Counted from the first letter of the stretch, positions 27,433 through 62,586 are shown. The stretch: 62,586 nucleotides of DNA from Acidimicrobiia bacterium (GCA_036502765.1 DASXXX010000047.1:1-62586), one strand, 5' to 3'. Notes: generated by a model not told the origin, from the letters alone. A program made the numbers and translations.

Positions 27433-27444
27433 CGCACCACCACC

Positions 27445-31878: not shown

Positions 31879-31879
31879 G

Positions 31880-36384: not shown

Positions 36385-37578
36385 TCAGTCGAGCGCGGCG
36401 TACACGTCGATCCAGAATTCCTGGACGATCGCGGGGAGCGGGAACGGGCCGGCGAACGCGTCGGTCGTGAGGATGACACCCACCACGTCGTGGTGCGGGT
36501 CGTTGGACCACGACGAACCGAGCCCGCCGGTCCAGCCGTACGCACCGACGGTGGGTCCGAGCCCGGTGCGGCGCATCTGCACACCCACGCCGAAGCCCCA
36601 CCCCTGGGCACCGTCGGGCGCCAGACCCGGCGCACCGGCCGCGACACCCAGTTGATCCGTCGTCATCGCCTCGACCGCGGCCCGCGAGATGAGGTGCGGC
36701 CCGTTCGGGAGACGCCCTCCCGCGAGCAGCATGCGTCCGAACGCGTGCACGTCGTCGACGGTCGACACCAGCCCACCTCCGCCCGACGGGAACGCGGGCA
36801 TCGTCGCCCACTGGCCGTCGGGCGGGTCGAAGACGACCGGCGCGCCGGTGGCCGGGTCGCGCTGGTACGACGACCCCATCCGGGACACGTCGGACGCGAC
36901 GAACGCGGTACCGCTCATGCCGAGTGGTTCGAGCACGCGCTCACGGAGCACGACCTCGAACGGCTGCCCGGCCGCGCGCGCGATCAGCACCCCCAGCACG
37001 TCGGCGCTGTAGTGGTAGGTCCACCGCTCCCCGGGCTGGTGGAGCAACGGGAGCGTGCCGAGCCTGCGGATCCACTCGTCGGGCTCCGGCGGGAGCTGTG
37101 GTGCCGGCGGCGCGGTGGTGATGCCGAGGTCGTCGATCGCCTGCATCAGCGGCTGCGGGAACGGCGCGTCGAAGTCCATGCCGATGCCGGTGCGGAAGGT
37201 CAAGACGTCGTGCACCGTGAGCGGTCGGACTGCGGGCACGGTGTCGCCGTCGATCGGCCCGCGGGCGTCGACGAGCACCCGGCGATCGGCAAGTTCCGGG
37301 AGCAACGCGTCGATCGGATCGTCGAGGTGCAGCGCGTGGTCCTCGACGAGGACCAGCGCGGCGACCGCCGCGATCGGCTTGGTGATCGACGCGATGCGGA
37401 AGACGCTGTCGCGTTCCACGGGCGCCGGTTCGCCGCGCGTCAGGTGGCCGGCCGCGCCGGCGTGCACGTCGTCACCGCACGCCGCGAGCCAGGCCACTCC
37501 CCCGACGTCGTCGGCCGCAGCGTGCTCTGCGATCGCATCACCGAGGCGGATGATCCGGGCCGTGTCGAACGTGCTCAT
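36385..37578 (-). CDS. serine hydrolase (beta-lactamase-fold family)
   Basis: 397 aa with intact SxxK (FRIASITKP). Confidence 0.8.
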   Translation of the reverse strand: MSTFDTARIIRLGDAIAEHAAADDVGGVAWLAACGDDVHAGAAGHLTRGEPAPVERDSVFRIASITKPIAAVAALVLVEDHALHLDDPIDALLPELADRRVLVDARGPIDGDTVPAVRPLTVHDVLTFRTGIGMDFDAPFPQPLMQAIDDLGITTAPPAPQLPPEPDEWIRRLGTLPLLHQPGERWTYHYSADVLGVLIARAAGQPFEVVLRERVLEPLGMSGTAFVASDVSRMGSSYQRDPATGAPVVFDPPDGQWATMPAFPSGGGGLVSTVDDVHAFGRMLLAGGRLPNGPHLISRAAVEAMTTDQLGVAAGAPGLAPDGAQGWGFGVGVQMRRTGLGPTVGAYGWTGGLGSSWSNDPHHDVVGVILTTDAFAGPFPLPAIVQEFWIDVYAALD

Positions 37579-37692
37579 GTCAGGTAGGACCGCCGGCGGC
37601 TCGAGAACTCATCGCGGGGGCGTCGCATCTGGCAGCATCCTCGTCGAGTCCGCAACCGCAACGCAGAACCCGAACACCAGGAGGAGAGCACC

Positions 37693-42111: not shown

Positions 42112-42274
42112 CGTGCACCACAGAGGGTGAAATCCCCATGGCACGCAACCAGAGTACGGGCTCGATGCGGACGGGATCTCAAGGCCAGATGTCGGAGGGT
42201 TCTCCTGTCAATTCGTCCTTTTCAGCTACGGTGCCGGTCGCCATGGGGTCGTTCTCCCCTCCGGAGGCAGGACC

Positions 42275-43462
42275 GTGATGAAGAAGACCGGTGTTCGTGG
42301 CGTCGTCGTGGCGGCGATCGTGTGTGTCGTCGCGGCTGCTTTGCCCGTCGCGGCGGGCGCGGCGACCAGCGTGAAGTGCTCGGCGAGTCAGGTCGACATC
42401 GGCGGTACGTGCACGAGCAAGGCCGAGGTGTCGAAGCAGATCGTCTCGATCACCCAAGGGGTGATGGAGAAAGAAGACGCCAAGGGTGTGGTCCTGCGCG
42501 TCGACGTCGGCAACGACACGGTCGTCAACACGGGTCTCGGGATCTCCCAGATCGGGTCACCGGTGACGCCGGACATGAAGTGGCGTCCGGGGTCGATGGC
42601 GATCCCGATGCTCACCAGCATCGAGCTGCAGCTGCAGGAAGAGGGCAAGCTCAGCCTCGACGACACGCTCTCGAAGTGGTACCCCGACTACCCCAACGCC
42701 GACAAGGTGACGTTGCGGATGATGTCGAGTGTCACCTCCGGCTACCCCGACTTCATCCAGGACAACCCGCCGTTCCAGGCCGCGCAGCTCGCGGAGCCGT
42801 TCCGCCAGTGGACCGACGACGAGCTGCTGCAGTACGCGTTCGCGTTGCCGGTCGTCTGCGACCCGGGCGCGTGCTTCCACTACGCGCACACCAACTTCAT
42901 CCTGCTCGGCAACGTGATCCAGAAGGTCACCGGGAAGTCGGTGACCCAGCTGATCCAACAGAAGTTCCTCGGCCCGCTCGGGATGACCCAGACGAAGATC
43001 ACGAAGCTTCCCGCCATCCCGGAGCCGGCGCTGCACGCCTACACCGACGAGCGCGGCGTCTACGAGGAGTCGACGGGATGGAGCCCGTCGTGGGGCCTCG
43101 GCGACGGGCTCATCATGACGTCCACCGCGCGCGACATGACCACCCTCATCAAGGCGATCGGCACCGGCAAGTTCCTGTCGCAGAAGTCGGTGAGCGAGCA
43201 GTTCGAGAATTTGTCGAAGGGCCTGGAGGGTGCACCGAACCCGATCGGCTACGGGCTCGGGATCGCCGTCGCCGGCACGGACTGGGTCCTCCAGAACCCG
43301 GTCTTCAACGGATACGCCGGGATCGCCGCCTACGAGCGGGCGCAGAAGATCTCGATCGTGATCGACAACACCCACGGCCCGAACGCAGCGGCGGGCACGA
43401 GCATCGCGACCGAGATCTACAAGGCGCTCGCCGCCTACCTGGCGCCGAACGATCCGATCTAG
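42275..43462 (+). CDS. secreted beta-lactamase-fold protein lacking the SxxK lysine (probable pseudo-enzyme)
   Basis: Signal peptide MMKKTGVRGVVVAAIVCVVAAALPVAAGA. The active-site position reads RPGSMAIPMLTS (S-M-A-I instead of S-x-x-K). The YxN position reads YAH. GC is lower than neighbouring genes. Confidence 0.7.
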   Translation: MMKKTGVRGVVVAAIVCVVAAALPVAAGAATSVKCSASQVDIGGTCTSKAEVSKQIVSITQGVMEKEDAKGVVLRVDVGNDTVVNTGLGISQIGSPVTPDMKWRPGSMAIPMLTSIELQLQEEGKLSLDDTLSKWYPDYPNADKVTLRMMSSVTSGYPDFIQDNPPFQAAQLAEPFRQWTDDELLQYAFALPVVCDPGACFHYAHTNFILLGNVIQKVTGKSVTQLIQQKFLGPLGMTQTKITKLPAIPEPALHAYTDERGVYEESTGWSPSWGLGDGLIMTSTARDMTTLIKAIGTGKFLSQKSVSEQFENLSKGLEGAPNPIGYGLGIAVAGTDWVLQNPVFNGYAGIAAYERAQKISIVIDNTHGPNAAAGTSIATEIYKALAAYLAPNDPI

Positions 43463-48933: not shown

Positions 48934-49407
48934 TCACGAGGTCGGCCGACTGCGCGTGAAGAGCACCCGGTCGAGGAGCACGAACTGCAAGATCCAGAGC
49001 AGGCCGAAGCCGCCGAAATGCCCGACCAGGACGGCGCCCGTGCGGAGCATGGGCGTCAGCTGCATGTGCGCCGTCCAGGAAGCGGCGATGGCGACCGTGA
49101 CCGTCGAGAGGGCGAGACCGCAGAATGCAAGGAGCCAGAAGGGGAAGATCTCCCGCCAGAAGTCGCTGCGGTCCCGCCGCGCCCACGTCCACCGACGGTT
49201 CAGGTGGTACGACGGAACGGTTGCGACGCTCGTCGCCAGGATGTTGGCGACGACGGCGGCGAAGGCAAAGACGTTCGTGGCAACCACGATGACCACGACG
49301 CTGATCGCGGTCGTGACCACCGAGACGCTCATGCAACGCCGAAGCCGACCGACCAGCGTGGGAACTTCAGGCGCAACGCATTCCTGGACATCGAGCGCAG
49401 CAGTCAT
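48934..49407 (-). CDS. GtrA-family membrane protein
   Basis: 157 aa, four TM segments, ...YHLNRRWTW... motif. Confidence 0.75.
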   Translation of the reverse strand: MTAALDVQECVAPEVPTLVGRLRRCMSVSVVTTAISVVVIVVATNVFAFAAVVANILATSVATVPSYHLNRRWTWARRDRSDFWREIFPFWLLAFCGLALSTVTVAIAASWTAHMQLTPMLRTGAVLVGHFGGFGLLWILQFVLLDRVLFTRSRPTS

Positions 49408-50207
49408 GACCGGCCGCCGATCGAGTGCAGCACCACGGCCTCGTCGCGCTCGCGCCGCCGATGTTGGAACGCCCGTCGGGTCACCATCACGAGCGCTTCG
49501 CGGATGATGGCCGACGACATCTTCGATTCGCCGGCGGTGCGGTCACGGAACTCGATCGGCACCTCGACCATCACCGCGCCCTGAACTCGCGCCCGATCGG
49601 TCATGTCGATCTGGAATCCGTAGCCAGTGGTCGTCACGGTTTCGAGGTCGATCGCGCGCAGCAGGCTCGCCCGATAGGCGCGGTAGCCAGACGTCACGTC
49701 GCGGAGCGGAAGCCCCAACAAGGTGCGTGCGTACCAGCCGCCCGCCCGCGACAGGAGACGGCGGCGGGCCGACCAACCGGGCGTGTCCCCGCCCGGGACG
49801 TACCGCGAGCCGACTGCGAGGTCGGCACCGCACTCGATGGCTGCGACCAGCGCGGGGAGATCACTCGGATCGTGGGAGAGGTCGGCGTCCATCTCGACGA
49901 GCACGTCGAAGTCCTCCGACAGTCCGATGCCGAACCCCGCGCGATAGGCCGGTCCGAGCCCACGCGGCCCGGTGCGTCGAAGCACATGAATTCGTCCGAT
50001 CATCAACGCCACGGCCTCCGCCCGCTCCGGGGTGCCGTCCGTGCTGCCGTCGTCGACGACGAGCACGTGCGCGGCCGGAAGCGCGTTGCGGACGCGCCGC
50101 AGCACCTCCTCGATGTTGGCGCTCTCCTGCAAGGTCGGTAGCACGACGAGGGTCCGGAACGTGGCTGGATCGGAGTGCATCTCGCGGAGCTCAGCGGAAG
50201 CGGTCAT
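49404..50207 (-). CDS. ppm1: polyprenol-phosphate mannose synthase-like GT2 glycosyltransferase
   Basis: ATG 50207 with AAGGAGG upstream. VVLPTLQESANI, VVDDGSTDGT, EMDADLSHDP, SRYVPGG. Stop overlaps the gtrA-like start. Confidence 0.8.
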   Translation of the reverse strand: MTASAELREMHSDPATFRTLVVLPTLQESANIEEVLRRVRNALPAAHVLVVDDGSTDGTPERAEAVALMIGRIHVLRRTGPRGLGPAYRAGFGIGLSEDFDVLVEMDADLSHDPSDLPALVAAIECGADLAVGSRYVPGGDTPGWSARRRLLSRAGGWYARTLLGLPLRDVTSGYRAYRASLLRAIDLETVTTTGYGFQIDMTDRARVQGAVMVEVPIEFRDRTAGESKMSSAIIREALVMVTRRAFQHRRRERDEAVVLHSIGGRS

Positions 50208-50592
50208 GGCGGTTGCCTCCTTCGTGTTGGACGGGGTGTGCAGCGCGCGAGACGAACTCACTCGCGTTTCCGATGCGGCGTCGTAGCCGCAGGGTCAACT
50301 CGTCGACTGCGGCTTGCATCGTGGTTGCCACGGCTCCGGCGACGATCACTCTGCTGCTGCCGTCGAGGACCACTGCGCACTCTGCGATTGCCAACGGGCG
50401 CGGGTGGCTGACAGGTTCCGAAGTGAGGTGTGCGTGTGCGCAGTACCCCGCCGGCGCCGCATCATCGGAGACCCTGCGCAGCTCGTCGAGTGCATAGGTC
50501 CAGTCGAGCGCGGAGACCGCCCCGTTGAAGGTGGCCGTGACGACACGGTGCGACACCTGCGGACCGCTGCGACCGACACTGACCCTGTCCAT
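50191..50592 (-). CDS. HPF/RaiA (S30EA)-like small protein, tentative
   Basis: ATG 50592 with GAGGAGG upstream. Beta-alpha-beta-beta-beta-alpha-like pattern: VVTATFNGAVSALDWTYALDELRRV ... AIAECAVVLDGSSRVIVAGAVATTMQAAVDELTLRLRRRI. 17-nt overlap with the ppm1-like start. Confidence 0.4.
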   Translation of the reverse strand: MDRVSVGRSGPQVSHRVVTATFNGAVSALDWTYALDELRRVSDDAAPAGYCAHAHLTSEPVSHPRPLAIAECAVVLDGSSRVIVAGAVATTMQAAVDELTLRLRRRIGNASEFVSRAAHPVQHEGGNRHDRFR

Positions 50593-50844
50593 TGGTCCTC
50601 CTCGCGGCTGGCGCGACGACGTGTCACCGAGTGATCGAACCACCCAGCACACAGAGCGTCGCCCCTTGTCGGGACGTCTCGCATCGGGGAGGCCCTAGGC
50701 GATTGCCCCAGTCGTGCGCGCGCCGACGGCCGAGCTGCGGCGGAACTGTGGGCATGCCTGGTGCCTCCCGGATGCGAAGGCGGACCCCGACGAAGACAGT
50801 CGGGCTCGAGAACGCGATCCGCACTCGAGCGGAGGAGCCGAGCC

Positions 50845-52533
50845 GTGACGACCGCACTGGTCGAACTGAATCCGTGGCCCACATCGCGGCGGCCGAGGCG
50901 GTGGTCGGCGAGATCGTGGTTGTGGGCGCCGCTGATCGCGGGCGCGGCAGCGGTCGCGATCTGGCAGCTGGGGTTCCGCGGTTCCGACGTCCCGGCGCAG
51001 CTCTACTACGTCAGGGTGTTCCGCGCCCACGGGTGGGTGCTCTGGGACAACGGCTGGTACGGCGGCCACTTCCAGGTCTCGTACTCGGTCTTGTTTCCAC
51101 CCTTGGGCGCGAGCATCGGTGTGTACGGGGCGGCCTTGGTGTGCGCAGCTTCGTCGGCATGGGCGTTCGAGCGTCTCGTCGCCACTGCCTCTGGTCGACG
51201 CAACTTCGGACCCGGGATCCTGTTCGCGGCCGGGACGGCGGTCGCGGTAGCGATCGGTCAGTTGCCCTTCCTCGCCGGTGTCGCCGCCGGGTTGTTGGCA
51301 CTGTTGGCAGCGTCCCGGAATCGCACCGTCGTAGCGATCGTCTTCAGCGCGAGCTGCGCGCTGTTCAGCCAGATCGCCGGGGCGTTCCTCGTCCTCGCAA
51401 TCCTCTCGTGGGCGCTCACGAGTGCGGCAGGAGAACGCAGGAGGCTGTTCGTGCTCACTGGGGTCGCGGCGCTGCCGGTCCTCATGCAGAGCATCATGCT
51501 CCCCCACCTCGGACCGTTCCCGTTCATGGGTCCCGATCTCTTCGTCCTCGAGAGTGTGTGCGTCCTCGGAGTGATTGCGCTCCCGAAGGAGTATCGGGCT
51601 CTCCGCGTGGGGCTCGTGCTCTACGGCGCCACCGCGTTGGCGGTGTTCGTGGTGCCGAATCCCCTCGGGGGCAACGTGGGACGCGCCATCCTCTACTTCG
51701 CGCCAGCGTTGTTCGCGTTCCTTGGGACGCTTCCGGGGCGACGCGCGTTCGCGTTGCTCGTGCTTCCCCTCCTCGTCTGGCAGTACGTCCCGGCGCTGTC
51801 GTCGCTCCAGAGCGACAACTCGAGGCAGGCCAGCTACTACGCGCCTCTGGTGAAGTTCCTGACCAGCCAACCGACCATCGGTCGACTCGAGATCCCGTTC
51901 ACGAGCGCGCACTGGGAAGCGGCGTACGTGGCACCGCGCGTCCCACTCGCGCGAGGTTGGCTCCGCCAGCTCGACACCCTCGACAACCCCATCTTCTACG
52001 CGTCCGCATCGATCAACGCGACGAGCTACCACCAGTGGCTCCTGCGGAGCGGCGTCACCTGGGTCGCGCTCCCAGACGTCTCGCTGGACTACTCCGCGGC
52101 CGCGGAAGCCCACCTGTTGGAGCACGGTCAGCAGTACCTCCAGCTCGCATGGAACAACGCGCACTGGCGACTCTGGAAGGTCACCGACTCCCCGGGTCTG
52201 GTGAGCGGTCCCGCGCGCGTCGTCGCCCTCGGGCCGGATCACGTGACACTGGAAGCCACTGGCACCGGTCCCGCGCTCGTTCGCGTCCGCTACACGTCGC
52301 TGTGGCACATCGCCCGAGGCAGCGCCTGTCTGCGGTCGAACAGTCGACAGTGGACCAAGCTCATGATCCAACAGCCCGGACGCATCGAGCTCACGACGTC
52401 GCTGTTCGACACCGGCAACGACTGCACCGCGGCGCCATCGGAGCGTGCCCAACTCGCTCGACATGTGGCCACGCCAACAGCCGAGCCGCCCCACAGCGGT
52501 TCGTCAGAACATTCAGGCCAGCATGAACGGTGA
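50845..52533 (+). CDS. polytopic membrane protein with C-terminal extracytoplasmic domain (GT-C-like glycosyltransferase candidate)
   Basis: GTG 50845 with GGAGGAG upstream. ~10 hydrophobic segments, then a ~200-aa soluble domain. Family not identifiable by eye. Confidence 0.45.
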   Translation: MTTALVELNPWPTSRRPRRWSARSWLWAPLIAGAAAVAIWQLGFRGSDVPAQLYYVRVFRAHGWVLWDNGWYGGHFQVSYSVLFPPLGASIGVYGAALVCAASSAWAFERLVATASGRRNFGPGILFAAGTAVAVAIGQLPFLAGVAAGLLALLAASRNRTVVAIVFSASCALFSQIAGAFLVLAILSWALTSAAGERRRLFVLTGVAALPVLMQSIMLPHLGPFPFMGPDLFVLESVCVLGVIALPKEYRALRVGLVLYGATALAVFVVPNPLGGNVGRAILYFAPALFAFLGTLPGRRAFALLVLPLLVWQYVPALSSLQSDNSRQASYYAPLVKFLTSQPTIGRLEIPFTSAHWEAAYVAPRVPLARGWLRQLDTLDNPIFYASASINATSYHQWLLRSGVTWVALPDVSLDYSAAAEAHLLEHGQQYLQLAWNNAHWRLWKVTDSPGLVSGPARVVALGPDHVTLEATGTGPALVRVRYTSLWHIARGSACLRSNSRQWTKLMIQQPGRIELTTSLFDTGNDCTAAPSERAQLARHVATPTAEPPHSGSSEHSGQHER

Positions 52534-52643
52534 CGTTGCCACTCGCCGGGGCCGACGCAGGGGTGCTGTCCCCGAAGACACCAAGTGTCCGAAGCGCGAT
52601 CGTGCTCATGGATCCTCATCGAGGATCACGCGAGGAGCACACG

Positions 52644-55436
52644 ATGGGACCAAGGACCTGCCCTTCCGACCGAGGCGGACAAGCGTGTGACATGCCAGCG
52701 CGCTCTGCGACGCTTGCGATCGGACGGGACGAGGTGACGGAAGCCCTCAACGCCGCCGCAGCCGGTCACGGCAACGCGCTCATCGTGCGAGGCGAGGCCG
52801 GCCTCGGAAAGTCGACGCTGCTGCACGAGGCCGTCGTTGCAGCCGCCGGGTTCCGGGTCGCGACGGTCGCCGGCGAGCAGTTGGAGCAGGGTCTTTCGTA
52901 CGCCGGGCTCCACCGACTGTTCGTGACGATGCTCGACCGCATCGACACGCTGCCCGCTCCTCAGCGCAACGCTCTCGCTGCTGCGCTCGGCACGCGGGAG
53001 GGCATGATCGATCCGTTTCTCGTGGGGTTGGCCGTCATGGGTCTGCTGTCGGAGATGAGTGCGGGCGAACCGTTCCTCTGCGTCATCGACGACGCGCAGT
53101 GGATGGACGCGGCCTCGATGCAGGCGCTGGCGTTCGTCGCCCGTCGCCTCGGCACTGAACGCGTCGCGCTGATGTTCGGGGTCGTGGACACTGCCGACGA
53201 GCTCGCGGGCCTGCCCGAGGTGCTCCTGCGCCCACTCTCGGACGCCGACGCCCACGATCTGGTCGTCTCGGTTGTCCCGGGCCCACTCTGCCCACAGGTG
53301 GCCGATCGGATCGTCGAAGAGTCCCAGGGCAACCCGCGGGTGCTGCTCGCTCTGCTGCGCAGCTTCTCGCCAGAGCAACTCGCCGGCGGGTTCGGCCTGC
53401 CCGTCGCACTGCCGGCGGGCGATCCGCTCGTAGCTACCTTGCGCTCGCGGCTCGACGGTCTCGGTACGGACACGCGGGAACTGCTCCTCGTCGCCGCGGC
53501 GGAACCGGAAGGCGATCTGGCGCGGTTCTGGGGTGCGGTGGAACGCCTCGACCTCGATCACGCCGCGACTGATGAAGCAGTCGCCCTCGGGCTGCTCGGA
53601 TTCGGTACTCGAGTCACCTTCCTCCAGCCGCAGCTGCGTTCGCTCGTGTACCACGATGCCCTCCCGGCCGACCGGCGCGCAGTGCATCGAGCACTCGCTG
53701 GCACGACCGAGCCGGAGCAGGACGTCGACCGGCGCGCATGGCACGAAGGCCATGCCGCGCTGGGCATGGATGCGCCCGTCGCCGACGCGCTTGAACGTTC
53801 TGCGACGAATGCGCAAGTACTCGGAGGCTTCGCAGCTGCAGCCGCCTTCCTCGAGCGGTCGGCCCTGCTCACGTCCCACCCCGACCGCCGCGCGCAGCGC
53901 GCGCTCCTCGCCGCGCGCGCGAAGTTCGAGGCCGGATCGGTGGAGGCGGCCTCCCAGCTGCTCACCCTCGTGAACGAGACGTCGCTCGACCAGCTCGAGC
54001 ATGCACGACTCCAGCAACTTCGCGCCGAGGTGGTCGCGCAACGCCGCGGGAGCGAGGCTCCACCGTTGCTGCTCGACGTCGCCCGCGCACTCGAGCAGCT
54101 CGATGTCCAGCTCGCCCGCGACACGTACCTGCAGACACTCGAAGCCGCCCTCGTCGCCGGGCGACTCGGTGCCCACCGCCGCCTGGTCGAGGCTGCACTC
54201 GCGGGTCGAGGAACACCTCGCTCGAGCATCCCTTGCGGCGCCGACTGTCTGCTCGACGGTCTGGCGCTGCTGATCACGGACGGCCACTCGGCCGCCCAGC
54301 CGGCATTGCGGCGCGCGGTGCAGGCGTTTCGAAGCGAAGACGACACCCGCTGGCTCGGTCTCGCATGCCGCGCCGCGGCCGAGGTCTGGGACGCGGACGC
54401 GACGTTCGACCTCGCGACGCGGTGGACTCAGCTGAGCCGCGACACCGGTGCGCTGATCCACCTTCCGATGGCACTGAACTTCACCGCCGGCCTCCACGTC
54501 CATGCGGGTGAGTTCGAGACCGCCGCAGCACTCGTCGAGGAGGCAACCTCGATCGTGACGGCGACGGACCTCGCGCCGGTCTCGCACGGCGCTTTGGTCC
54601 TCGCCGCGTGGAGCGGTCGTGAGCTTCGAACGTCGGAACTGATCGAAGCGGCCAGGCGCGATGCGCTGACGACCACTGACGGACTCCTGCTCTCCCTCAC
54701 CGAGTACAGCGCCGCCGTGCTCGCGAACGGCCTCGGCCGATATCACGACGCGCTCGACGCGCTCCAGAGCTACGACGACCGCGACGGGCTCGTGTCGAAC
54801 TGGATCCTGCCCGAGCTCGTCGAGGCCGCGGTGCGGAGCGGAGAGCACGCGCTCGCCGCGTCGGCAGCCGAGGAGCTCACGGTGCGCACCGAGGCGGCTG
54901 GCACCGAATGGGCCCTCGGGTTCCAGGCGCGTTCCTCCGCACTGCTCACTGACGGCCCCGCGGCCGAGAAGCGTTACCGGGAAGCCATCGAGCGCTTCGG
55001 ACGCTGCCGGGCTTCTGGCCACCTCGCACGAGCGCACCTGCTGTACGGAGAGTGGCTCCGTCGCGAACGCCGACGCCTCGAAGCACGTGAGCAGCTTCGT
55101 CTCGCACGCGACATGTTCTCGACGATGGGCGCGGCCGCCTTCGCACAACGCGCGGAACGAGAGCTCTTCGCGACGGGCGAACGCGCACGTAGGCGAAGCG
55201 TCGAGACCGTGCGCCACCTCACGCCCCAGGAGCTGGAGATCGCGCGGTTGGCGAGCACCGGAGAGTCGAACCCCGAGATCGCCGTGCGGCTCTTCATCAG
55301 CGCACGCACCGTCGAGTACCACCTGCACAAGGTGTTCACGAAGCTCGACATCCGCTCGCGGACCCAACTCGCCGTCGCACTCGACGGTGACACCCGGTTG
55401 TCGCGGTCACCGAACGCAGGAGCAGCGCTGCGATGA
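52644..55436 (+). CDS. LAL/MalT-type large ATP-binding LuxR-family regulator
   Basis: Walker A GEAGLGKST, long helical-repeat middle section, C-terminal LuxR HTH LTPQELEIARLASTGESNPEIAVRLFISARTVEYHLHKVFTKL. Start at ATG 52644 (CGAGGAGC upstream) or 52692. Confidence 0.85.
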   Translation: MGPRTCPSDRGGQACDMPARSATLAIGRDEVTEALNAAAAGHGNALIVRGEAGLGKSTLLHEAVVAAAGFRVATVAGEQLEQGLSYAGLHRLFVTMLDRIDTLPAPQRNALAAALGTREGMIDPFLVGLAVMGLLSEMSAGEPFLCVIDDAQWMDAASMQALAFVARRLGTERVALMFGVVDTADELAGLPEVLLRPLSDADAHDLVVSVVPGPLCPQVADRIVEESQGNPRVLLALLRSFSPEQLAGGFGLPVALPAGDPLVATLRSRLDGLGTDTRELLLVAAAEPEGDLARFWGAVERLDLDHAATDEAVALGLLGFGTRVTFLQPQLRSLVYHDALPADRRAVHRALAGTTEPEQDVDRRAWHEGHAALGMDAPVADALERSATNAQVLGGFAAAAAFLERSALLTSHPDRRAQRALLAARAKFEAGSVEAASQLLTLVNETSLDQLEHARLQQLRAEVVAQRRGSEAPPLLLDVARALEQLDVQLARDTYLQTLEAALVAGRLGAHRRLVEAALAGRGTPRSSIPCGADCLLDGLALLITDGHSAAQPALRRAVQAFRSEDDTRWLGLACRAAAEVWDADATFDLATRWTQLSRDTGALIHLPMALNFTAGLHVHAGEFETAAALVEEATSIVTATDLAPVSHGALVLAAWSGRELRTSELIEAARRDALTTTDGLLLSLTEYSAAVLANGLGRYHDALDALQSYDDRDGLVSNWILPELVEAAVRSGEHALAASAAEELTVRTEAAGTEWALGFQARSSALLTDGPAAEKRYREAIERFGRCRASGHLARAHLLYGEWLRRERRRLEAREQLRLARDMFSTMGAAAFAQRAERELFATGERARRRSVETVRHLTPQELEIARLASTGESNPEIAVRLFISARTVEYHLHKVFTKLDIRSRTQLAVALDGDTRLSRSPNAGAALR

Positions 55437-56368
55437 TCCAGGCTCGAGGCTTGACCAAGCGCTACGGACCGACGGTCGCGGTCGATGATCTGTCGTTCGA
55501 CGTGTCGCCCGGTCGCGTGACCGGGTTCCTGGGCCCCAACGGTGCCGGGAAGAGCACGACCATGCGCCTCATCGTCGGACTCGACGCACCCACGGCCGGC
55601 GAGGTCTCGATCAACGGGCGGGCGTTCGCGCAGCACCGCTTCCCCGCCCGAGAGGTCGGTGCTCTCCTCGACGCGATGGCGCTGCATCCAGGGCGGCGCG
55701 CGGTCGATCATCTCTGGTCGTTGGCCCAGAGCAACCACATCCGACGGCACCGAGTCGACGAGGTCCTCGACGTCGTGGGGCTCACCGACGTGGCCGGTCG
55801 CCGCATCGGTCCCTTCTCCCTGGGGATGAAGCAACGTCTCGGAATCGCGGCGGTGTTGCTGGGCGATCCGGGCACGCTCCTCTTCGACGAGCCGGTGACC
55901 GGCCTCGATCCCGAAGGGATCGTCTGGATCCGCACCCTCTTCCACCGACTCGCTGCAGAAGGACGCACCGTCCTCGTGTCGAGCCACCTCATGAGCGAGA
56001 TGGCGCTGACCGCGCAACACCTGATCGTGATCGGACGGGGCAAGCTCCTCGCAGACGAGAGCATCGAGCGCATGATTGCCGCGGCCGGCTCCTCGGTGCG
56101 GGTCCGCTCGCCACAGCAGGCGGACCTGGGCCGGGTGCTCGAACACGAAGGTGCCACGACCCGCTCCGACGACGGTGCGCTCGTCGTCACCGGCCTCGAC
56201 GCTGCCGGCATCGGCGACCTCGCCGCCGCGCATCGCATCACGCTGCACGAGCTCTCCCCGCAACGCGCATCGCTCGAGGAAGCCTTCTTCGATCTCACCG
56301 AAGACAGCACCGAATACCAAGGTGCCGACATCACGTCCACACCTGCGACTCGCGAGGTCCTCCGATGA
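55433..56368 (+). CDS. ABC transporter ATP-binding protein
   Basis: GPNGAGKST, FSLGMKQRLG, LLFDEP. Start overlaps the LuxR stop. Confidence 0.9.
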   Translation: MIQARGLTKRYGPTVAVDDLSFDVSPGRVTGFLGPNGAGKSTTMRLIVGLDAPTAGEVSINGRAFAQHRFPAREVGALLDAMALHPGRRAVDHLWSLAQSNHIRRHRVDEVLDVVGLTDVAGRRIGPFSLGMKQRLGIAAVLLGDPGTLLFDEPVTGLDPEGIVWIRTLFHRLAAEGRTVLVSSHLMSEMALTAQHLIVIGRGKLLADESIERMIAAAGSSVRVRSPQQADLGRVLEHEGATTRSDDGALVVTGLDAAGIGDLAAAHRITLHELSPQRASLEEAFFDLTEDSTEYQGADITSTPATREVLR

Positions 56369-57225
56369 GCACCGCCGCCGCGTCCACCCCTCGACCCGCG
56401 CCCGAGTACGCACTCGACGCGTTCGCCGACTCGGAACGACGTGCGCGTCCTGCGGTGCTGCCATACGTCATGCGGTCGGAGTGGACGAAGCTCCGTTCCG
56501 TCCGTTCGACGGTCTGGTCGTTGTTGGCGACGTTCGGCATGACGGTCGGCCTCGGCGCCGTGTTCTCGTGGGCCTACGTCAATCGCTACAGCCAACAGAG
56601 CCTCGCTGACCGCCTCACCTTCGACCCGACTTCCCGCAGTCTCAGCGGCTTGTTCCTCGCCCAACTCGCGATCGGTGTGCTCGGTGTGCTCATCATGAGC
56701 TCCGAGTACGCCACCGGGTTGATCCGAGCCACCTTCATCGCGGTCCCCCAACGCCGCACCGTCCTCGGCGCCAAGGTCGCCGTCTTCGGCGCGGTGGCGC
56801 TGGTCGTGAACATGGTGTCGGTGTTCGTCGGGTTTCTCGTTGGCCAGGCCATCCTGAGCACCAAGAGCCTGGGTGTGTCGCTCGGCGATCCGGGCGTGCT
56901 CCGAGCAGTCGCCGGCGCCGGCGCGTACCTCACCTTCGTGGCGTTGCTCGGTCTCGGCATCGCCACCGTGCTCCGGCGCACCGCTGGTTCGATCGCCACG
57001 CTCGTCGGCTTCGTCCTCGTGCTCCCGCTCCTCGTCCAGGCCCTCCCGAGCCCGTGGAACCACGACATCGCGAAGTATCTGCCCAGCGAGATCGGCGACG
57101 CCCTCTACAGCGTTCGCTCCAGCCCCAACCACCTGTCACCCGCGGCGGCGCTGGGCGTCGCCGCGCTCTATCTCATCGCCACGTACTCCGGCGCAGCAGT
57201 ACTCATCACCCGACGCGACGCGTAG
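56365..57225 (+). CDS. ABC-2-type transporter permease
   Basis: SEWTKLRS and SSEYATGLIRATF motifs, six TM segments. Start overlaps the ATPase stop. Confidence 0.8.
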   Translation: MSTAAASTPRPAPEYALDAFADSERRARPAVLPYVMRSEWTKLRSVRSTVWSLLATFGMTVGLGAVFSWAYVNRYSQQSLADRLTFDPTSRSLSGLFLAQLAIGVLGVLIMSSEYATGLIRATFIAVPQRRTVLGAKVAVFGAVALVVNMVSVFVGFLVGQAILSTKSLGVSLGDPGVLRAVAGAGAYLTFVALLGLGIATVLRRTAGSIATLVGFVLVLPLLVQALPSPWNHDIAKYLPSEIGDALYSVRSSPNHLSPAAALGVAALYLIATYSGAAVLITRRDA

Positions 57226-57322
57226 CCCCCGCAGGCGCGACCGGGCCCACCAGGGCGTTGCGAATGCGCGTCCGCGCAACGCGACATTGCGAAGGATCCA
57301 CCGTGGAACGACGGGAGGTGTG

Positions 57323-58786
57323 ATGAGCAGAACTACAGGCTGGCCACCTGAGTCCACAGTCCACGGATTGGATCCGTTCCTCCTCGCGCCGCCGAGCCGC
57401 GCGCGGGAGATCCACCGCTCACACGGCGCCGGCGTACAACTCCGGCGCTGGTGGATGCTGACCACGATCGTGCTGGCCGGCGCGGTGCTTCGGCTCTGGG
57501 GGCTCGGTGCCCACCGCCTGGACTTCGACGAGGCCTTCACCGCCATGGCCGGTCGCCTCCCGCTCCGCGGCCTGTTCGACTACCTCCGGGTACGGGACTC
57601 GCACCCGCCGCTCGACTACCTGCTCCATGCGCCACTCGCACGCGCCGGCGTCGATGAATTCCTGTTCCGCCTGCCATCGGCAGTCTGCTCGATCGGTGCC
57701 GTCGCGCTGTTCGCCTGGTGGATGCGCCGCCGCGGCTTCTCCGGGATCGTGGCGACGGGCCTGCTCGCCGTGAGTGCCTTCCAGCTCACACATGGACGCG
57801 AAGCTCGCATGTACGCAGAAATGGAGCTCATCGGCGTCGGGGTGGCGGTGCTCGCCGAATCATGGCTGCGCCGACCGCGACGTTGGCACGCGGCCGTGTT
57901 GGCCGCGCTCGTGTTCGTGGGGCTGCTCACGCACGTCTCGATGTTCCTGCTCGGCGCCGGTCTCGTCGTGCTTGCAGGTCGGCGCACGGATCGTGACGCA
58001 TGGCGTTGGCGTCTCGCCCTCGGGGCGGGTGCGGTCGGCTGGGCTGTGCTGTGGGGCTCATCGTTCCTCGTTCAGAGCCGGGGCGGCCATTCGGACTGGA
58101 TTCCGCGCACGACCTTCGACGGCATGATCCACACCTTCGGTCGCCTGGTGACGTACCAACCTGCGCTCCACGTGTTCGTGCTGGCGGCAGTTGCCGCAGG
58201 CGCAGTCCTCCTGGTGCGCGCCGACCGGCAGCTCGGCCGAGTCTGGTTGTGCTGCGTCCTCGTTCCTGCCGCACTGGCCGCGCTGACGGGAACGGTCGCG
58301 CCGGTGCTGCTTGATCGGACGTTGACAGTGGTGTCGTGGGGTCCGCTGCTGGCGCTGGGCGTGCTGGTGGACGCGGCCGCGTCCCGTTCACGACTGCTCG
58401 GCGCGATCGTGGTCCTCGTGCTCGTCGCGGTGATGGTCCCGCCCGCGATCCACGCGGTGACCGAGCCGTCCGCCCCGGACCGGGTGCTGCGCCACGTCGA
58501 AGCGGTCACCGGTCCCGGTGATGTCGTCGCGATCCACCCCGGCGGACGCCTCCACGAGCTCCTCTGGTCCGTCGGTGTCCGAGACAGCCAGCCCTACCAG
58601 CCGGTCTCCCTGGTGGGGTTCGGAGACAGCACCGGATTCGTGCTCAGTCCGGACGCGCCTCGAACCGGCCACCTCTGGATTCTCGACTGGACGAAGCACG
58701 CTCTCCCCGTTCCGACACTGCCGAGGTGCGCACCCGACTGGTCCGGCGGCGGCGCACGCTTGTACTGCCTCGTCGGTGGTCACTAG
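57323..58786 (+). CDS. GT39/PMT_2 (ArnT-like) polyprenyl-phosphate-sugar-dependent glycosyltransferase
   Basis: ATG 57323 with GGGAGG upstream. LDFDEAFTAMAGR (DE motif in the first loop), DSHPPLDYLL, many TM segments. Confidence 0.65.
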   Translation: MSRTTGWPPESTVHGLDPFLLAPPSRAREIHRSHGAGVQLRRWWMLTTIVLAGAVLRLWGLGAHRLDFDEAFTAMAGRLPLRGLFDYLRVRDSHPPLDYLLHAPLARAGVDEFLFRLPSAVCSIGAVALFAWWMRRRGFSGIVATGLLAVSAFQLTHGREARMYAEMELIGVGVAVLAESWLRRPRRWHAAVLAALVFVGLLTHVSMFLLGAGLVVLAGRRTDRDAWRWRLALGAGAVGWAVLWGSSFLVQSRGGHSDWIPRTTFDGMIHTFGRLVTYQPALHVFVLAAVAAGAVLLVRADRQLGRVWLCCVLVPAALAALTGTVAPVLLDRTLTVVSWGPLLALGVLVDAAASRSRLLGAIVVLVLVAVMVPPAIHAVTEPSAPDRVLRHVEAVTGPGDVVAIHPGGRLHELLWSVGVRDSQPYQPVSLVGFGDSTGFVLSPDAPRTGHLWILDWTKHALPVPTLPRCAPDWSGGGARLYCLVGGH

Positions 58787-61700
58787 ATGACCGGGGTCCC
58801 GACCTACCAATTGCAGACCGGCGCCGTCGGTGCGCGCGAAGTTCTGCACCATTCGCGAACGGTCCGAATCATGTTCGCCGCGTTGGGGCTGCTCGCCGTC
58901 GGTCTGGCGCTCCAACTCGCGGTGTTCGCTCATGGTGGCCACACCGCGCTCAGCGACCTCCCACGCGTGTTCTTGCACCGGGGCGTCGGCCCGGACGCGT
59001 TCCCGTATGTCGACCGCGCCACTGAGTATCCCGTCGGATCGGGGCTCCTGCTCTACGTCGCCGCACTGATCTCACCCGGCGCACTCGGGGTGCTGCTCGT
59101 GACCGCGCTCGCCTCGGCGGCGCTGTGTCTCGTGATCGCCGTTGCCCTCGAGCGGCGTGTCGGAGATCGCGCCTGGCGTTGGGCGCTCGCAGTGCCGGTG
59201 CTCCTCTACGCGTTCCAGAACTGGGACGTCTTCGCCATCGCGGCCCTGGTGGCCGGGTTGCTCGCGTTCGAGCGCCGCCGCGACTGGACCGCTGGCGCGG
59301 CGCTCGGACTCGGCGCGGCGGTGAAGCTCTTCCCGGCGATCGTGCTCCCCCCGCTGATCGCCGTTCGCCTCGCCAGGGGTGACCGACGGGGGGCGGTCCG
59401 GCTGGCCGCGTCGAGCGCGATCGCCTTCGTTGCGATCAACCTGCCAGTCCTGCTGGCCAACCCTTCCGGTTGGTGGTGGCCCACGGCCTTCCAGTCTCGA
59501 CGCAACGCGACCTGGGGCAGCGCGTGGTTCTACCTCTTCCGCCTCGGTGGTCTCCCCGTGCACGGCGCGACGGGCGCGCGGCTCGCCAACGTCGTCTCGC
59601 TCGTCGCATTGGTGGCCGCGGTGAGTTGGCTGACCATCGTGACGATGCGGCGCAGGTTGCCGCCGCTCGCCGCCGCGGGAGCCGCGGTTGCGATCTTCAT
59701 CCTCTGCAACAAGGTCTACTCACCGACGTACGACCTCTGGCTGGTCGTGTTCTTCGTGCTCCTGCCCTTGAGCTCCCGCCTCTGGGCCATCTTCTGTGGC
59801 ATCGATCTCGCGGTGTTCATCACCGTGTACGGCCATTTCCACGGCCTCGACTCCACGCAGTTCGTACGGGTCGTGCTGCCGGTTCTGGTAGCGGTACGAA
59901 CGGTGGTCTTGATCGTCCTCGTGTTCTCATCGACTCGCCCGCTTCCCACTGCGTGGAGGATCTCCCGGCCCGCGAGGGGCGGCTCGAGACCGCCGCTCGG
60001 GCGCGCTTGCCGACCAGGGAACCGCCAGGCCGCGAGGTCGAGAGCCTGGCCGTCCGTGTTCCTCGTCCCGCTGCTGATGTGTTCACTCGTCGGCATGACG
60101 GGTGCCGACGCCGCGGGCGCCGCATCGACCACGACGACCATCGGAGCATCGGGACAGGTCACCGCCGCGACGCTCCCCACCCCGCGGCCGTCGAGCGTCG
60201 ATGCCAGCGGGACCGTGAGCGCGTTTCCGGCGCCGGGCACGCTCACCGCTTCGCCCACCACCACGATCACCTTGCGCGGCGTCGACGCGGCGACGCTGAG
60301 CTCCATCGACGTGTCCGGCGCGAAGAGTGGTAGCCACGCCGGACATTTCCAACCACACGCCGACGGGCTGGGCACCACCTTCGTGCCCGACGCCGCGTTC
60401 ACGGCCGGTGAGAGGGTCACCGTGACAACGGGTCTCTCGGTCCGTGCCGGCACGAATGGGCGGTACATGTTCACGGTCGCGCGTCCCGCGGCGTACCCGG
60501 GCCCGGTCCCGGCCACGACCGCCACCGGCGATCTGCAGCACTTCGTCAGCCGGCCCGATCTCACTCCACCTGTGCTCACGCTCACGACGCCACCGAAGAA
60601 CACCGCGCCCGGCGACATCTTCCTCACTCCCCGGGGCGGGGGCGCGCAGAACGGACCGCTCGTCGTCGACGACGAAGGTCAGCTCGTGTGGTCCGCGCCG
60701 GTGCCGGATGCTCCGGTGTACAACCTCCAGCTGCAGCAATACCGGGGGCAACCGGTGCTCACCTGGTACCAGGGCCCGACCGTCAACCCCGGCATCGGCC
60801 AGGGCATGGGCGTGATCGCCGACGCGAGCTATCGCACGATCGCGCAGGTCCACGCGGTGAATGGCTACGCGGCCGATCTCCACGACATGACGATCACGCC
60901 ACAGGGCACGGCCCTGCTGGTCATCTACAACCCCGTGATCGTCGATGCGTCGTCGGTGGGGGGCTCGAAGAACCAACACGTGTTCGAGCCGGTGATCCAG
61001 GAGATCGACATCGCGACCGGCGCGTTGCTCTTCGAGTGGCACGGGATCGGTTCGATCGCCCTGAACGAGACGCACGCGCCGATGCCCACGGCGGCGAGCA
61101 CCATGTTCGACTACGTGCACCCGAACTCGGTCGCCCTCGACGACGACGGCAACGTGCTCCTCTCTGGGCGACACACATGGACCGTCTACAAGATCGACCG
61201 CGTCAGCGCGACACTCGACTGGCGTCTGGGTGGCAAGGTCGGCAACTTCACGATGCCGAAGAACGCCATGCCGGCCTGGCAACACGATGCCCGACGGAAC
61301 AGTGACGGGACCCTCAGCGTCTTCGACGACGGCGCGGGACTGACGACCACGCACAAGTCGCGCGGGTTGGTGCTCGGCATCGACGAGCACACGATGACCG
61401 CAACCCTCGACCATCAGTACTTCCCACCAAAGCCGATCCAGTCGACCGCCGAAGGGAGCATGCAACTGCTCGCGAACGGGGACTGGCTCGTCGGATGGGG
61501 CAGCCAGCCCGAGTACACGGAGTACGCCCCCGACGGCACCGTGGTGTACGACGTGCACTTCCGGTCGTCGTCGGGCGGCCCCGTCACGTCATACCGCGCC
61601 CTGCGGTACGAATGGAGCGGCCGGCCCACCGACGTCCCCGCGGTCGCGGCTGCGCGTACCAGTGGTGATGCAACCAAGGTCGACGTCAGCTGGAACGGTG

Positions 61701-61894
61701 CCACCGAGGTGAGCACGTGGGCGGTGCTCGCGGGGCCGGACGCCGAGCACCTCACGCGGGTGGCGTCCGCACCGAAGAAGGGATTCGAGACCTCGATCCC
61801 CGTCGTGAGCAACCAGCCCTACTTCGCCGTCCAAGCCCTCGACGCCGCCGGCGCGGTACTGGCGACGTCGGCACCCACGACACCGCGAGCGTGA
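58787..61894 (+). CDS. fusion protein: DUF2029/GT87-like membrane glycosyltransferase + Arylsulfotran_2-like domain
   Basis: Single 1035-codon ORF with no internal stop. The N-terminal ~385 aa are polytopic (TEYPVGSG, GLGAAVKLFPA). An Arg-rich linker and a signal-peptide-like TM follow (WPSVFLVPLLMCSLVGMTGADA). The C-terminal domain has DLHDM, QEIDIATGALLFEW, FDYVHPNS, WQHDAR and SVFDDG motifs. Confidence 0.7.
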   Translation: MTGVPTYQLQTGAVGAREVLHHSRTVRIMFAALGLLAVGLALQLAVFAHGGHTALSDLPRVFLHRGVGPDAFPYVDRATEYPVGSGLLLYVAALISPGALGVLLVTALASAALCLVIAVALERRVGDRAWRWALAVPVLLYAFQNWDVFAIAALVAGLLAFERRRDWTAGAALGLGAAVKLFPAIVLPPLIAVRLARGDRRGAVRLAASSAIAFVAINLPVLLANPSGWWWPTAFQSRRNATWGSAWFYLFRLGGLPVHGATGARLANVVSLVALVAAVSWLTIVTMRRRLPPLAAAGAAVAIFILCNKVYSPTYDLWLVVFFVLLPLSSRLWAIFCGIDLAVFITVYGHFHGLDSTQFVRVVLPVLVAVRTVVLIVLVFSSTRPLPTAWRISRPARGGSRPPLGRACRPGNRQAARSRAWPSVFLVPLLMCSLVGMTGADAAGAASTTTTIGASGQVTAATLPTPRPSSVDASGTVSAFPAPGTLTASPTTTITLRGVDAATLSSIDVSGAKSGSHAGHFQPHADGLGTTFVPDAAFTAGERVTVTTGLSVRAGTNGRYMFTVARPAAYPGPVPATTATGDLQHFVSRPDLTPPVLTLTTPPKNTAPGDIFLTPRGGGAQNGPLVVDDEGQLVWSAPVPDAPVYNLQLQQYRGQPVLTWYQGPTVNPGIGQGMGVIADASYRTIAQVHAVNGYAADLHDMTITPQGTALLVIYNPVIVDASSVGGSKNQHVFEPVIQEIDIATGALLFEWHGIGSIALNETHAPMPTAASTMFDYVHPNSVALDDDGNVLLSGRHTWTVYKIDRVSATLDWRLGGKVGNFTMPKNAMPAWQHDARRNSDGTLSVFDDGAGLTTTHKSRGLVLGIDEHTMTATLDHQYFPPKPIQSTAEGSMQLLANGDWLVGWGSQPEYTEYAPDGTVVYDVHFRSSSGGPVTSYRALRYEWSGRPTDVPAVAAARTSGDATKVDVSWNGATEVSTWAVLAGPDAEHLTRVASAPKKGFETSIPVVSNQPYFAVQALDAAGAVLATSAPTTPRA

Positions 61895-62586
61895 GGGCGC
61901 TGGCGGGATTCGTGGTCGCCGGCCTGCTCCTGCCGATCTTGGGGTTCAGTGCGGCGAGCGGGCCGGGGGCGGCGGCGACGCCGAGCGTGTCGGGACGGCC
62001 CAACATCGTCTTCATCCTCACCGACGACCTCGACGCGACGACGTATGACCCGGCGCGCTTTCCCGCGCTGAGGGACCTGATGACGAGCCAGGGCGTCACG
62101 TTCTCGCACTTCTTCGTCGACGATTCGCTGTGCTGCCCGTCGCGGGCGTCGATCCTCCGGGGCCAATACGTGCACAACACGGGCGTGGTCAACAACGTGT
62201 TGCCGACGGGCGGTTTCGAACGCTTCCACGCCGACGGTCTCGAGTCGTCGACGGTGGCGACTTGGCTCCATGCGAGCGGCTACCGGACCGGGCTCTTCGG
62301 CAAGTACCTCAACGGCTACCCGAACACGGTCTCGCCCCGCTACGTGCCGCCAGGCTGGGACACCTGGGTGAGCCCGAGCGGCGGCAACCCGTACGCGGAG
62401 TTCCACTACCTGCTCAACGACAACCGCAGGCTCGTGCCGCACGGTCGCAAGCCAAACGACTACCTGGTCGACGTGCTCGCGCGGAAGACGGTCGGGTTCA
62501 TCAAGGCCGAAGCGGGCCATCCCTTCTTCGCGTACGTGGCGCCCTACGCGCCGCACCAGCCCGCCACCCCGGCGCCCCGGTACGCC
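61891..62586 (+). CDS. formylglycine-dependent sulfatase, N-terminal 232 codons (3' end outside window)
   Basis: GTG 61891 overlaps the preceding stop (GTGA). Signal peptide VRALAGFVVAGLLLPILGFSAASG, NIVFILTDD, CCPSRASILRG. Absent from the ORF track because no stop lies in the window. Confidence 0.85.
   Translation, partial: MRALAGFVVAGLLLPILGFSAASGPGAAATPSVSGRPNIVFILTDDLDATTYDPARFPALRDLMTSQGVTFSHFFVDDSLCCPSRASILRGQYVHNTGVVNNVLPTGGFERFHADGLESSTVATWLHASGYRTGLFGKYLNGYPNTVSPRYVPPGWDTWVSPSGGNPYAEFHYLLNDNRRLVPHGRKPNDYLVDVLARKTVGFIKAEAGHPFFAYVAPYAPHQPATPAPRYA

Follow-up and report, generated by a model that had tools for sequence, protein, structure and literature searches.

The window analyzed here is a 62,586-nucleotide (nt) stretch of DNA from an Acidimicrobiia bacterium (GCA_036502765.1, DASXXX010000047.1:1-62586), and the genes of interest occupy its last part, from 48934 to 62586 (Table 1). 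They include one open reading frame (ORF) that joins a GT87 membrane glycosyltransferase with the GT-C architecture to an arylsulfotransferase (ASST). The explanation that we favor, with moderate confidence, is that the region is composite, made up of blocks that are conserved independently and meet only in this lineage, and that the fusion is real and strain-specific. Besides the fusion ORF, the region encodes a small GtrA-like protein, a GT2 glycosyltransferase, two polytopic membrane proteins referred to as Mem3 and Mem7, a LuxR/STAND regulator, an ABC-2 exporter and a sulfatase. All of these parts come from known families; the GT87-ASST architecture is new and, so far, unique to this strain.

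The GT87-ASST ORF

The fusion ORF was uninterrupted and carried both a GT87 domain (PF09594, amino acids 81-304, 5.3e-13, 49.7 bits against a cut-off of 25) and an Arylsulfotran_2 domain (PF14269, amino acids 649-926, 7e-50, 170.6 bits against a cut-off of 27). The second half was also matched by PF05935 (9e-16). No stop codon or frameshift was found in either half, and the G+C content at third codon positions (GC3) was 0.86-0.87 in both. Contigs of the Logan assembly of soil metagenome run X1, which contains 96% of the sampled words of the window, reproduced positions 59807-60232 and 60203-62031 with 0 differences at a depth of ~17x. An identical 14.6-kb contig from another Joint Genome Institute (JGI) sample extended over the locus as far as codon 59 of GT87. 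Run X1 includes minor strain variants; the fusion strain is the dominant one, and no indel variant was reported in the linker between the two domains. The profile matches and the source-run contigs bear out the first-pass annotation, made from the sequence alone, which had described a DUF2029/GT87 N-terminus running without a stop into an arylsulfotransferase domain.

An assembly or sequencing artifact, with GT87 and ASST being separate genes in this strain too, would account for a fusion that is unique to this contig, and would be in line with the minor variants in the source sample and with a close relative in which a 38-nt indel lies precisely at the junction. Against it stand the independent Logan assembly, identical across 59807-62031 at that depth with no indel variant in the linker, and the two intact domains in one frame. 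We consider this explanation extremely unlikely.

The GT87 half has the properties of its family. Its D57 (SDLPRV) was invariant in alignment A6 and is the putative equivalent of PimE D58. Like PimE (PDB 9dm5) and the GT87 mannosyltransferases, it is a Pfam GT87, polytopic GT-C protein with a conserved Asp in the first outer loop. It differs from PimE in showing no sequence match detectable by phmmer, in belonging to its own Acidimicrobiia-type clade, whose members are often fused to GtrA, and in carrying, in this window, a C-terminal ASST. A PDB sequence search returned nothing for the GT87 domain or for Mem7.

In the ASST half, amino acids 586-1030 matched PDB entries 9kf4/9kf6, deposited as "Sulfotransferase" (5e-113), with ~50% identity to 9kf4 as estimated by eye. 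Residues H699 (DLHD), H778/N780 (DYVHPNS), R795 (SGRH) and H833 (AWQHDA) were invariant in an alignment with nine homologues (alignment A4). They match the order and spacing of the E. coli ASST active site, which consists of His252, His356, Asn358, Arg374 and the sulfurylated His436 (PMC13426309), and because of this agreement the ASST looks catalytically competent. The protein resembles E. coli CFT073 ASST (3ELQ), Streptomyces Cpz4 and 9kf4 in its β-propeller independent of 3′-phosphoadenosine-5′-phosphosulfate (PAPS), its His/His-x-Asn/Arg/His pattern and its predicted extracytoplasmic targeting. Unlike these enzymes, it falls in the Arylsulfotran_2 branch and has an extra N-terminal immunoglobulin (Ig)-like domain; it also lacks dsbL/dsbI partners, forms one protein with a GT-C membrane enzyme, and is paired with a sulfatase. 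A literature search for PDB 9KF4 found no paper, and the literature found on PF14269/Arylsulfotran_2 consisted of generic mentions only. The natural substrates and roles of bacterial ASSTs are mostly unknown (PMC13426309).

Origin of the linker and predicted export of ASST

The junction carries traces of two formerly separate genes. Stand-alone GT87 orthologues in loci L112 and L113 (64-66% identity) end ~20 amino acids past the last membrane helix, which is also ~20 amino acids beyond the point where the linker begins here, and other orthologues (P0002-P0005) run on into a GtrA domain. The linker, of 38 codons, replaces the ~20-amino-acid GT87 tail, the stop codon and the ASST start codon. 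It contains 10 Arg/Lys and 0 Asp/Glu residues, its codon-usage score is the sixth lowest of 998 windows in the ORF, and it looks like recently non-coding DNA. Next comes WPSVFLVPLLMCSLVGMTGADAAGA, a homologue of the signal peptide found in the stand-alone ASST P0001 (76% identity). DNA homology to the P0001 locus (L001) starts only near 60005, and the ATG of the L001 ASST has no counterpart in this window. A separate ASST start inside the ORF was considered and found unlikely: the GTG at 60056 and the ATGs at 60077 and 60095 lie in the hydrophobic core without a charged n-region.

These features suggest how the fusion could have arisen. An indel of ~38 nt would recently have deleted the stop codon of GT87 together with the start codon of ASST and left one ORF. 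The Arg-rich linker would be expected, from the positive-inside rule, to remain in the cytoplasm, which agrees with the GT87-GtrA fusions, where the C-terminus of GT87 must also be cytoplasmic. The former signal peptide, which forms an internal hydrophobic peak at amino acids 424-442, would then either span the membrane as one more segment or be cleaved as an internal signal; the second is suggested by its ADA/AGA motifs, which resemble signal-peptidase sites. Either way, the ASST should still be carried to the outer face, where it would be tethered beside the GT-C enzyme or released. The fusion was probably tolerated because ASST export was preserved. An extracytoplasmic location of ASST and sulfatase, as had been proposed from the sequence, is plausible.

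The same event could instead have been harmful, leaving an ASST that is mis-localized or inactive, a nascent pseudogene in a decaying locus. A strain-specific event, the poor codon usage of the linker and the lack, ahead of the hydrophobic segment, of a good internal start codon followed by a charged n-region would all be expected in that case. Neither half has acquired a stop or a frameshift, the GC3 values of both halves are alike, the catalytic residues of ASST are conserved, correct export is predicted from the positively charged linker and the hydrophobic segment after it, and the strain is dominant in its sample. With these observations on the other side, a damaging fusion is very unlikely.

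Distribution of the fusion and of its neighbors

The exact fusion protein was not on record. A word-indexed search of 5.8e9 proteins returned relatives that were ASST-only or GT87(+GtrA)-only. In an exhaustive phmmer search of 1.84e9 representative proteins, none of the best 150, where a true fusion of moderate identity would rank, matched both halves. P0008 (1006 amino acids), a candidate for a second fusion, proved to be a tandem ASST-ASST protein.

About 22 distinct GT87 loci, Acidimicrobiia-like and with 47-66% identity, from 17 species-representative genomes plus contigs from metagenomes or metagenome-assembled genomes (MAGs), were then compared by scoring their neighbors through tblastn with all proteins of the window and through gene calls. 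GT2 was a neighbor in ~11 loci, Mem7 in ~6 (in L112 and L113 the stop and start codons abut as they do here), GtrA in 4 (fused in two of them) and Mem3 in 2 (L013 and L014). ASST was found in 0 of the ~22 loci, the 17 from species-representative genomes included; one GT87 locus had a distant sulfatase ~7 kb off. Mem7 was also found paired with GT2 without GT87, in L029, where the flanking genes include two of the Sulfotransfer_3 family and one for TauD.

The reciprocal scan of metagenomes with the ASST alignment yielded 80 loci (39-48% identity), and GT87 was adjacent to ASST in 0 of the 80. Of the 77 loci with a called ASST ORF, 19 had a sulfatase beside an ASST gene, and in 13 of 44 assessable loci a sulfatase was the immediate upstream neighbor, mostly divergent. 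The only other recurrent neighbor was a further ASST copy (32 loci). The closest ASST-sulfatase pair, L001 (77-91% amino acid identity; 80-91% for the sulfatase), has an unrelated gene upstream. This recurrent ASST-sulfatase pairing in soil bacteria, which was not found described in the literature searched, appears to be new, and it points to an unstudied two-enzyme route for organic sulfate esters. These esters are a major soil sulfur pool.

The counts do not sustain the proposal of the first-pass annotation that the locus is a dedicated, co-evolving mannosylation and sulfation/desulfation module. Of the gene associations in the region, those of GT2/GtrA with GT87 and of ASST with sulfatase are recurrent, and the GT87-ASST-sulfatase triad is not. 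Neither the fusion nor a GT87-ASST-sulfatase operon was conserved; the adjacency is shared by one relative, at ~91% identity and out of frame.

Some ASST loci had features of their own. The coding sequence of the L001 sulfatase (L001:2253-2947) changes frame near L001:2657, which reflects either a frameshift error in that metagenome contig or a pseudogene. In L034, L037, L041, L042, L052, L105, L109 and others, two to four ASST paralogues flank a divergently oriented sulfatase, and the L034 sulfatase has a twin-arginine translocation (Tat)-like signal and a CSPAR motif. A 534-amino-acid polytopic protein without a Pfam match lies directly upstream of ASST, with an overlap of 13-31 nt, in L033:1603-3207, L074:4257-5861, L047 and L060. 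It was tried as a relative of Mem3 or Mem7 and showed no profile similarity to either.

A possible functional link

Several observations weigh against a purely composite origin. A 1123-nt contig of run X6, from another soil study, aligned with the 3′ end of GT87 (59749-59943) and with ASST (60110-60700+) on the same strand at ~91% identity, and X6 contigs of similar depth and identity were also found for GT2, LuxR, ABC, Mem7 and GT87. The GT87-ASST adjacency therefore persists in a second soil sample. The spacer between the two aligned pieces is 204 nt in X6 and 166 nt here. Because the difference of 38 nt is not a multiple of three, GT87 and ASST cannot share a frame in X6, and on this frame arithmetic alone they would be separate genes in that relative. 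Since X6 has the adjacency in another frame, the adjacency appears common to a species- or genus-level group and the single ORF specific to this strain. The genes are also tightly packed. The Mem7 stop abuts the GT87 start (TAG-ATG, 58784-9), the TGA of the fusion ORF is shared with the GTG of the sulfatase as GTGA (61891-4), and the plus strand has no terminator-like site, the only one found being on the minus strand. This arrangement favors co-expression of Mem7, GT87-ASST and the sulfatase and leaves a functional link among them plausible. None of the RNA runs searched contains the locus. Finally, ASST genes occur elsewhere in what appears to be an envelope-glycan or lipid-carrier context. 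In six diverged soil-metagenome loci (L032, L066, L069, L081, L086 and L103; ASST 51-75% amino acid identity) one gene context is shared, for example at L069:600-11000, in the order DsbA-like thioredoxin, BacA/UppP, DedA (VTT), DUF354, two ASST paralogues, CapD-like Polysacc_synt_2 and LytR_C. From these neighbors, a role of ASST in envelope glycans would not be far-fetched.

These observations are what would be expected if the locus were dedicated to sulfation of an envelope glycan, with the membrane-bound ASST beside GT87 sulfating hexoses newly attached by the GT-C enzymes, aryl sulfates of external origin or made by the cell serving as donors, and the co-translated sulfatase trimming or recycling sulfate. 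The physical fusion, the translational coupling with Mem7 and the sulfatase, the adjacency retained in the X6 relative, the predicted topology that places the ASST outside the cell and its intact catalytic residues fit such a system, as do the ASST paralogues in envelope-glycan contexts and a sulfatase whose best solved relatives are carbohydrate sulfatases. The ASST-type enzyme Cpz4 has also been reported to sulfate a sugar hydroxyl (PMC13426309). The distribution argues the other way: co-occurrence does not extend past the immediate lineage (none of the ~22 GT87 loci and none of the 80 ASST loci), L001 lacks GT87, and in the nearest relative GT87 and ASST do not share a frame. The linker, moreover, looks like recently non-coding DNA, and the locus shows no evident pathway for a sulfate donor. 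Functional coupling in the form of glycan sulfation is plausible but unproven, and a dedicated system of this kind seems to us rather unlikely. As "Rosetta-stone" evidence for coupling the fusion is weak, because the adjacency is limited to a lineage and out of frame in the ~91% relative.

A further step would be to regard GT87-ASST and its partners as a PAPS-independent machinery for extracytoplasmic sulfation of a bacterial envelope glycan, the first of its kind, which would draw on aryl-sulfate donors from soil organic matter. We think this distinctly improbable. If it were true, the ASST-sulfatase pairs and the ASST loci with UppP, DedA, CapD and LytR would be versions of the same unrecognized envelope-sulfation chemistry. 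A GT-C enzyme joined to an ASST is in any case a concrete, testable candidate for extracytoplasmic glycan sulfation. Should the fusion be no more than a neutral accident at the strain level, the locus would be an ordinary mosaic made up of known families.

Proposed lipid-linked sugar synthesis and transfer

In the composite that we favor, the first block consists of GT2, GtrA and the GT-C proteins. GtrA matched PF04138 (1.7e-13, 51.3 bits against a cut-off of 26.1) and has three to four hydrophobic segments in 157 amino acids, in line with the about four transmembrane helices expected of this family. As had been noted earlier, its gene overlaps the GT2 stop, through an ATGA at 49404-7. The GT87-GtrA fusions of L002/L003 contain a GtrA part to which the protein is 59-67% identical, and L005 has a stand-alone GtrA with 61% identity to it. 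In these fusions (L002:1810-3630 and L003:1547-3280; P0002-P0005) GT87 carries a C-terminal GtrA and is encoded just downstream of a histidine kinase. They physically link a lipid-sugar handling protein to its GT-C consumer. In this window the GtrA orthologue has moved next to GT2.

GT2 matched PF00535 (2e-26, 93.4 bits, above the gathering score) and contains the Asp-rich motifs VVDDGSTDG and EMDADLSHD expected of a polyprenyl-phosphate hexose synthase. Its best PDB match was 5mlz, the Pyrococcus furiosus dolichol-phosphate-mannose synthase (DPMS; 1.2e-32), followed by ArnC (1.7e-8). "Ppm1-like", the description given at first, is a fair one in view of the match to 5mlz. It does not extend to the specific enzyme, as no equivalog cut-off was reached in NCBIfam (AglJ, 65.6 against 325; PpgS, 42.8 against 370), so that neither a Ppm1 or other specific mannose synthase assignment nor mannose as the sugar is established. 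The hexose is probably mannose, judging from the best similarity to DPMS and from the GT87 family.

P. furiosus DPMS is the closest solved relative of this GT2, and it and actinobacterial Ppm1 differ from the arrangement found here, where the catalytic and membrane parts are separate genes. Because Pfam groups GtrA with the DPMS transmembrane domain, the GT2 and GtrA pair resembles a split archaeal-type DPMS. Another parallel is offered by the GtrA/GtrB/GtrC systems, which likewise combine a GT2 lipid-sugar synthase, a small GtrA protein and GT-C transferases acting on an extracytoplasmic acceptor, and are likewise encoded by clustered, overlapping genes. The mycobacterial PpgS-Rv3632-GT-C set is an analogue of these three-component systems. 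The present locus differs from both in that its GT2 is nearest to archaeal DPMS and not to GtrB or PpgS; it also differs in having three different GT-C proteins, and in that GtrA of its relatives is fused to GT87 and not stand-alone.

The first-pass annotation had counted three GT-C-looking membrane proteins. This count holds, for GT87 by Pfam and for Mem3 and Mem7 at the level of the fold and not by hidden Markov model (HMM). Pfam searches with Mem3 and Mem7 were empty even at E=10, apart from a spurious DUF2243 match for Mem7. In NCBIfam, Mem3 had no match and Mem7 matched Agl23 at no better than 1.2e-4. The Mem3 family has >1500 homologues, and none of the 120 listed had a precomputed Pfam domain; the Mem7 family has >400. 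AlphaFold2 (AF2) models built on alignments of these homologues had predicted local distance difference test (pLDDT) scores of 89.1 for Mem3 and 89.8 for Mem7. When the models were compared with the PDB by Foldseek, the significant matches of both proteins were all GT-C enzymes, with a Foldseek probability of 1.00. Those of Mem3 were STT3 (2e-5), DPY19, AftA, ArnT, ALG12 and PglB, and those of Mem7 were STT3 (5.6e-6), ArnT (TM-score 0.55), AftA, Pmt4, PglB, EmbB, AftB and PimE; ALG9 was also among the matches of the pair. In Mem7, D69 is invariant and E70 nearly invariant, in the first loop (alignment A2); in Mem3, D23 and D43 are nearly invariant. On the modeled structures, Mem3 and Mem7 are GT-C fold glycosyltransferases, and the fold-level assignment of these two families without Pfam domains is new. 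The label "PMT_2/GT39-like", given previously to Mem7, found no support in Pfam HMM searches, and Pmt4 and Pmt1/2 were just lower-ranked fold matches. The start of Mem3 is uncertain between the GTG at 50845, which is preceded by a Shine-Dalgarno motif, and a JGI call corresponding to 50920.

From these identities, GT2 and GtrA would load a polyprenyl phosphate with a hexose, probably mannose, at the cytoplasmic face of the membrane, and up to three GT-C transferases (Mem3, Mem7 and GT87) would pass the lipid-linked sugar to an envelope glycan, a lipoglycan or a protein outside. The block would act as in Gtr-type systems and those dependent on polyprenyl-phosphate mannose (PPM). The assignment places the Mem3 and Mem7 families in a Gtr/DPMS-like glycosylation system that is common in Acidimicrobiia-like MAGs.

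Regulator, exporter and sulfatase

The second block would consist of the LuxR/STAND regulator (PF13191, 3e-14; PF00196, 4.6e-16) and the ABC-2 exporter. The ATPase matched PF00005 (1.9e-27) and remained under the curated cut-offs of TIGR03740 and TIGR01188; the permease matched PF12730 (4e-6, 27.4 bits against a cut-off of 27). This block seems to travel with Mem3 in a relative: the order Mem3-LuxR-ABC-ABC is kept in L031, where it is followed by an HtrA-like protease, and L031 lacks Mem7, GT87 and ASST.

The third block would be the exported ASST with the formylglycine sulfatase, a pair that evolved separately. The sulfatase matched PF00884 (1.3e-26, 94.1 bits against a cut-off of 25), and its N-terminus has a hydrophobic signal peptide followed by CCPSRASILRG, an instance of the C-x-P-x-R motif of type I sulfatases. 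These results, with the GTGA at its start, confirm the signal-peptide sulfatase and the TGA/GTG overlap that had been read from the sequence. The protein shares the PF00884 N-terminal core, the motif and the signal peptide with the type I formylglycine sulfatases (S1 family). It differs from them in that 232 amino acids are visible here and in its recurrent ASST pairing. No gene for an FGE or anSME maturase was found among the ORFs of the window scanned with Pfam. Sulfation outside the cytoplasm cannot use PAPS, and the pair would handle sulfate esters without it, by ping-pong transfer through a sulfo-histidine and then hydrolysis.

Gene map and setting

The gene map (Table 1) is based on third-position GC analysis and on profile searches (Pfam, NCBIfam). 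All the sequence features named in the first-pass annotation were present where it had placed them. Its account of 48934-62586 was right in the coordinates and passed over the LuxR/STAND regulator, the ABC ATPase and the ABC-2 permease.

Table 1. Features encoded between 48934 and the end of the window, with the evidence for each assignment.
Feature	Position	Strand	Evidence
GtrA-like small polytopic membrane protein, 157 amino acids	48934-49407	-	PF04138
Soluble GT2 polyprenyl-phosphate hexose synthase (DPMS/Ppm1/GtrB-like)	49404-50207	-	PF00535
Mem3, polytopic, GT-C fold (modeled), C-terminal β-rich soluble domain	50845-52533	+	AF2 and Foldseek
LuxR-family STAND regulator (AAA_16 and GerE helix-turn-helix)	52692-55436 (longest ORF from 52530)	+	PF13191, PF00196
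ABC transporter ATPase (DrrA/lantibiotic-protection-like)	55433-56368	+	PF00005
ABC-2 type permease	56365-57225	+	PF12730
Mem7, GT-C fold (modeled), small C-terminal β domain	57323-58786	+	AF2 and Foldseek
GT87-ASST fusion ORF	58787-61894	+	PF09594 and PF14269
GT87 (DUF2029) GT-C domain of the fusion ORF	58787-59932	+	PF09594
Arg-rich linker of the fusion ORF	59933-60046	+	Codon usage, composition
Former ASST signal peptide, now internal hydrophobic segment	60047-60121	+	Alignment with P0001
ASST: N-terminal Ig-like domain, arylsulfotransferase β-propeller, C-terminal domain	60122-61894	+	PF14269, PF05935
Type I (formylglycine) sulfatase, secreted, N-terminal 232 amino acids, cut at the end of the window	61891-62586	+	PF00884

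The window has a G+C content of ~69%. In a genome scan with the single GT87-ASST protein as the query, the closest relatives were MAGs labeled Acidimicrobiia or "uncultured Actinomycetes", and the host is probably a soil Actinomycetota, Acidimicrobiia-like. ATGA overlaps also join the LuxR and ATPase genes (55433-6) and the ATPase and permease genes (56365-8). Shine-Dalgarno motifs precede GT2 (50207), Mem3 and Mem7 (57323), the one ahead of the GT2 ATG being the strong GAAGGAGG. A regulatory scan found no promoter-like sites, and no family was matched in an Rfam scan.

Between the ABC-2 permease and Mem7, in a gap of 97 nt, lies a perfect 8-bp inverted repeat at 57255-57282, GCGTTGCG-N12-CGCAACGC, a possible operator or attenuator of the Mem7/GT87-ASST/sulfatase unit. 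Two copies of a TTGCGAA motif lie near it. The divergent intergenic region between GT2 and Mem3 (50208-50844) is unusually long, ~640 nt, and includes two repeats, an imperfect direct one of 15 nt (50347/50378) and an inverted one of 8 bp (50285/50307). A 133-amino-acid ORF called there by JGI (50191-50592, minus strand) had no Pfam match and failed the third-position GC screen.

Elsewhere in the window, a PAPS-type sulfotransferase gene (Sulfotransfer_3, 1.5e-38) lies beside an epimerase/NAD_binding_4 gene at 30727-32106 (minus strand), and a TauD-family dioxygenase (4e-59) is encoded at 16319-17269 (plus strand). Three genes for serine β-lactamase or penicillin-binding protein (PBP)-like proteins (PF00144) are located inside 16 kb, at 27433-28587, 36385-37608 and 42131-43462.

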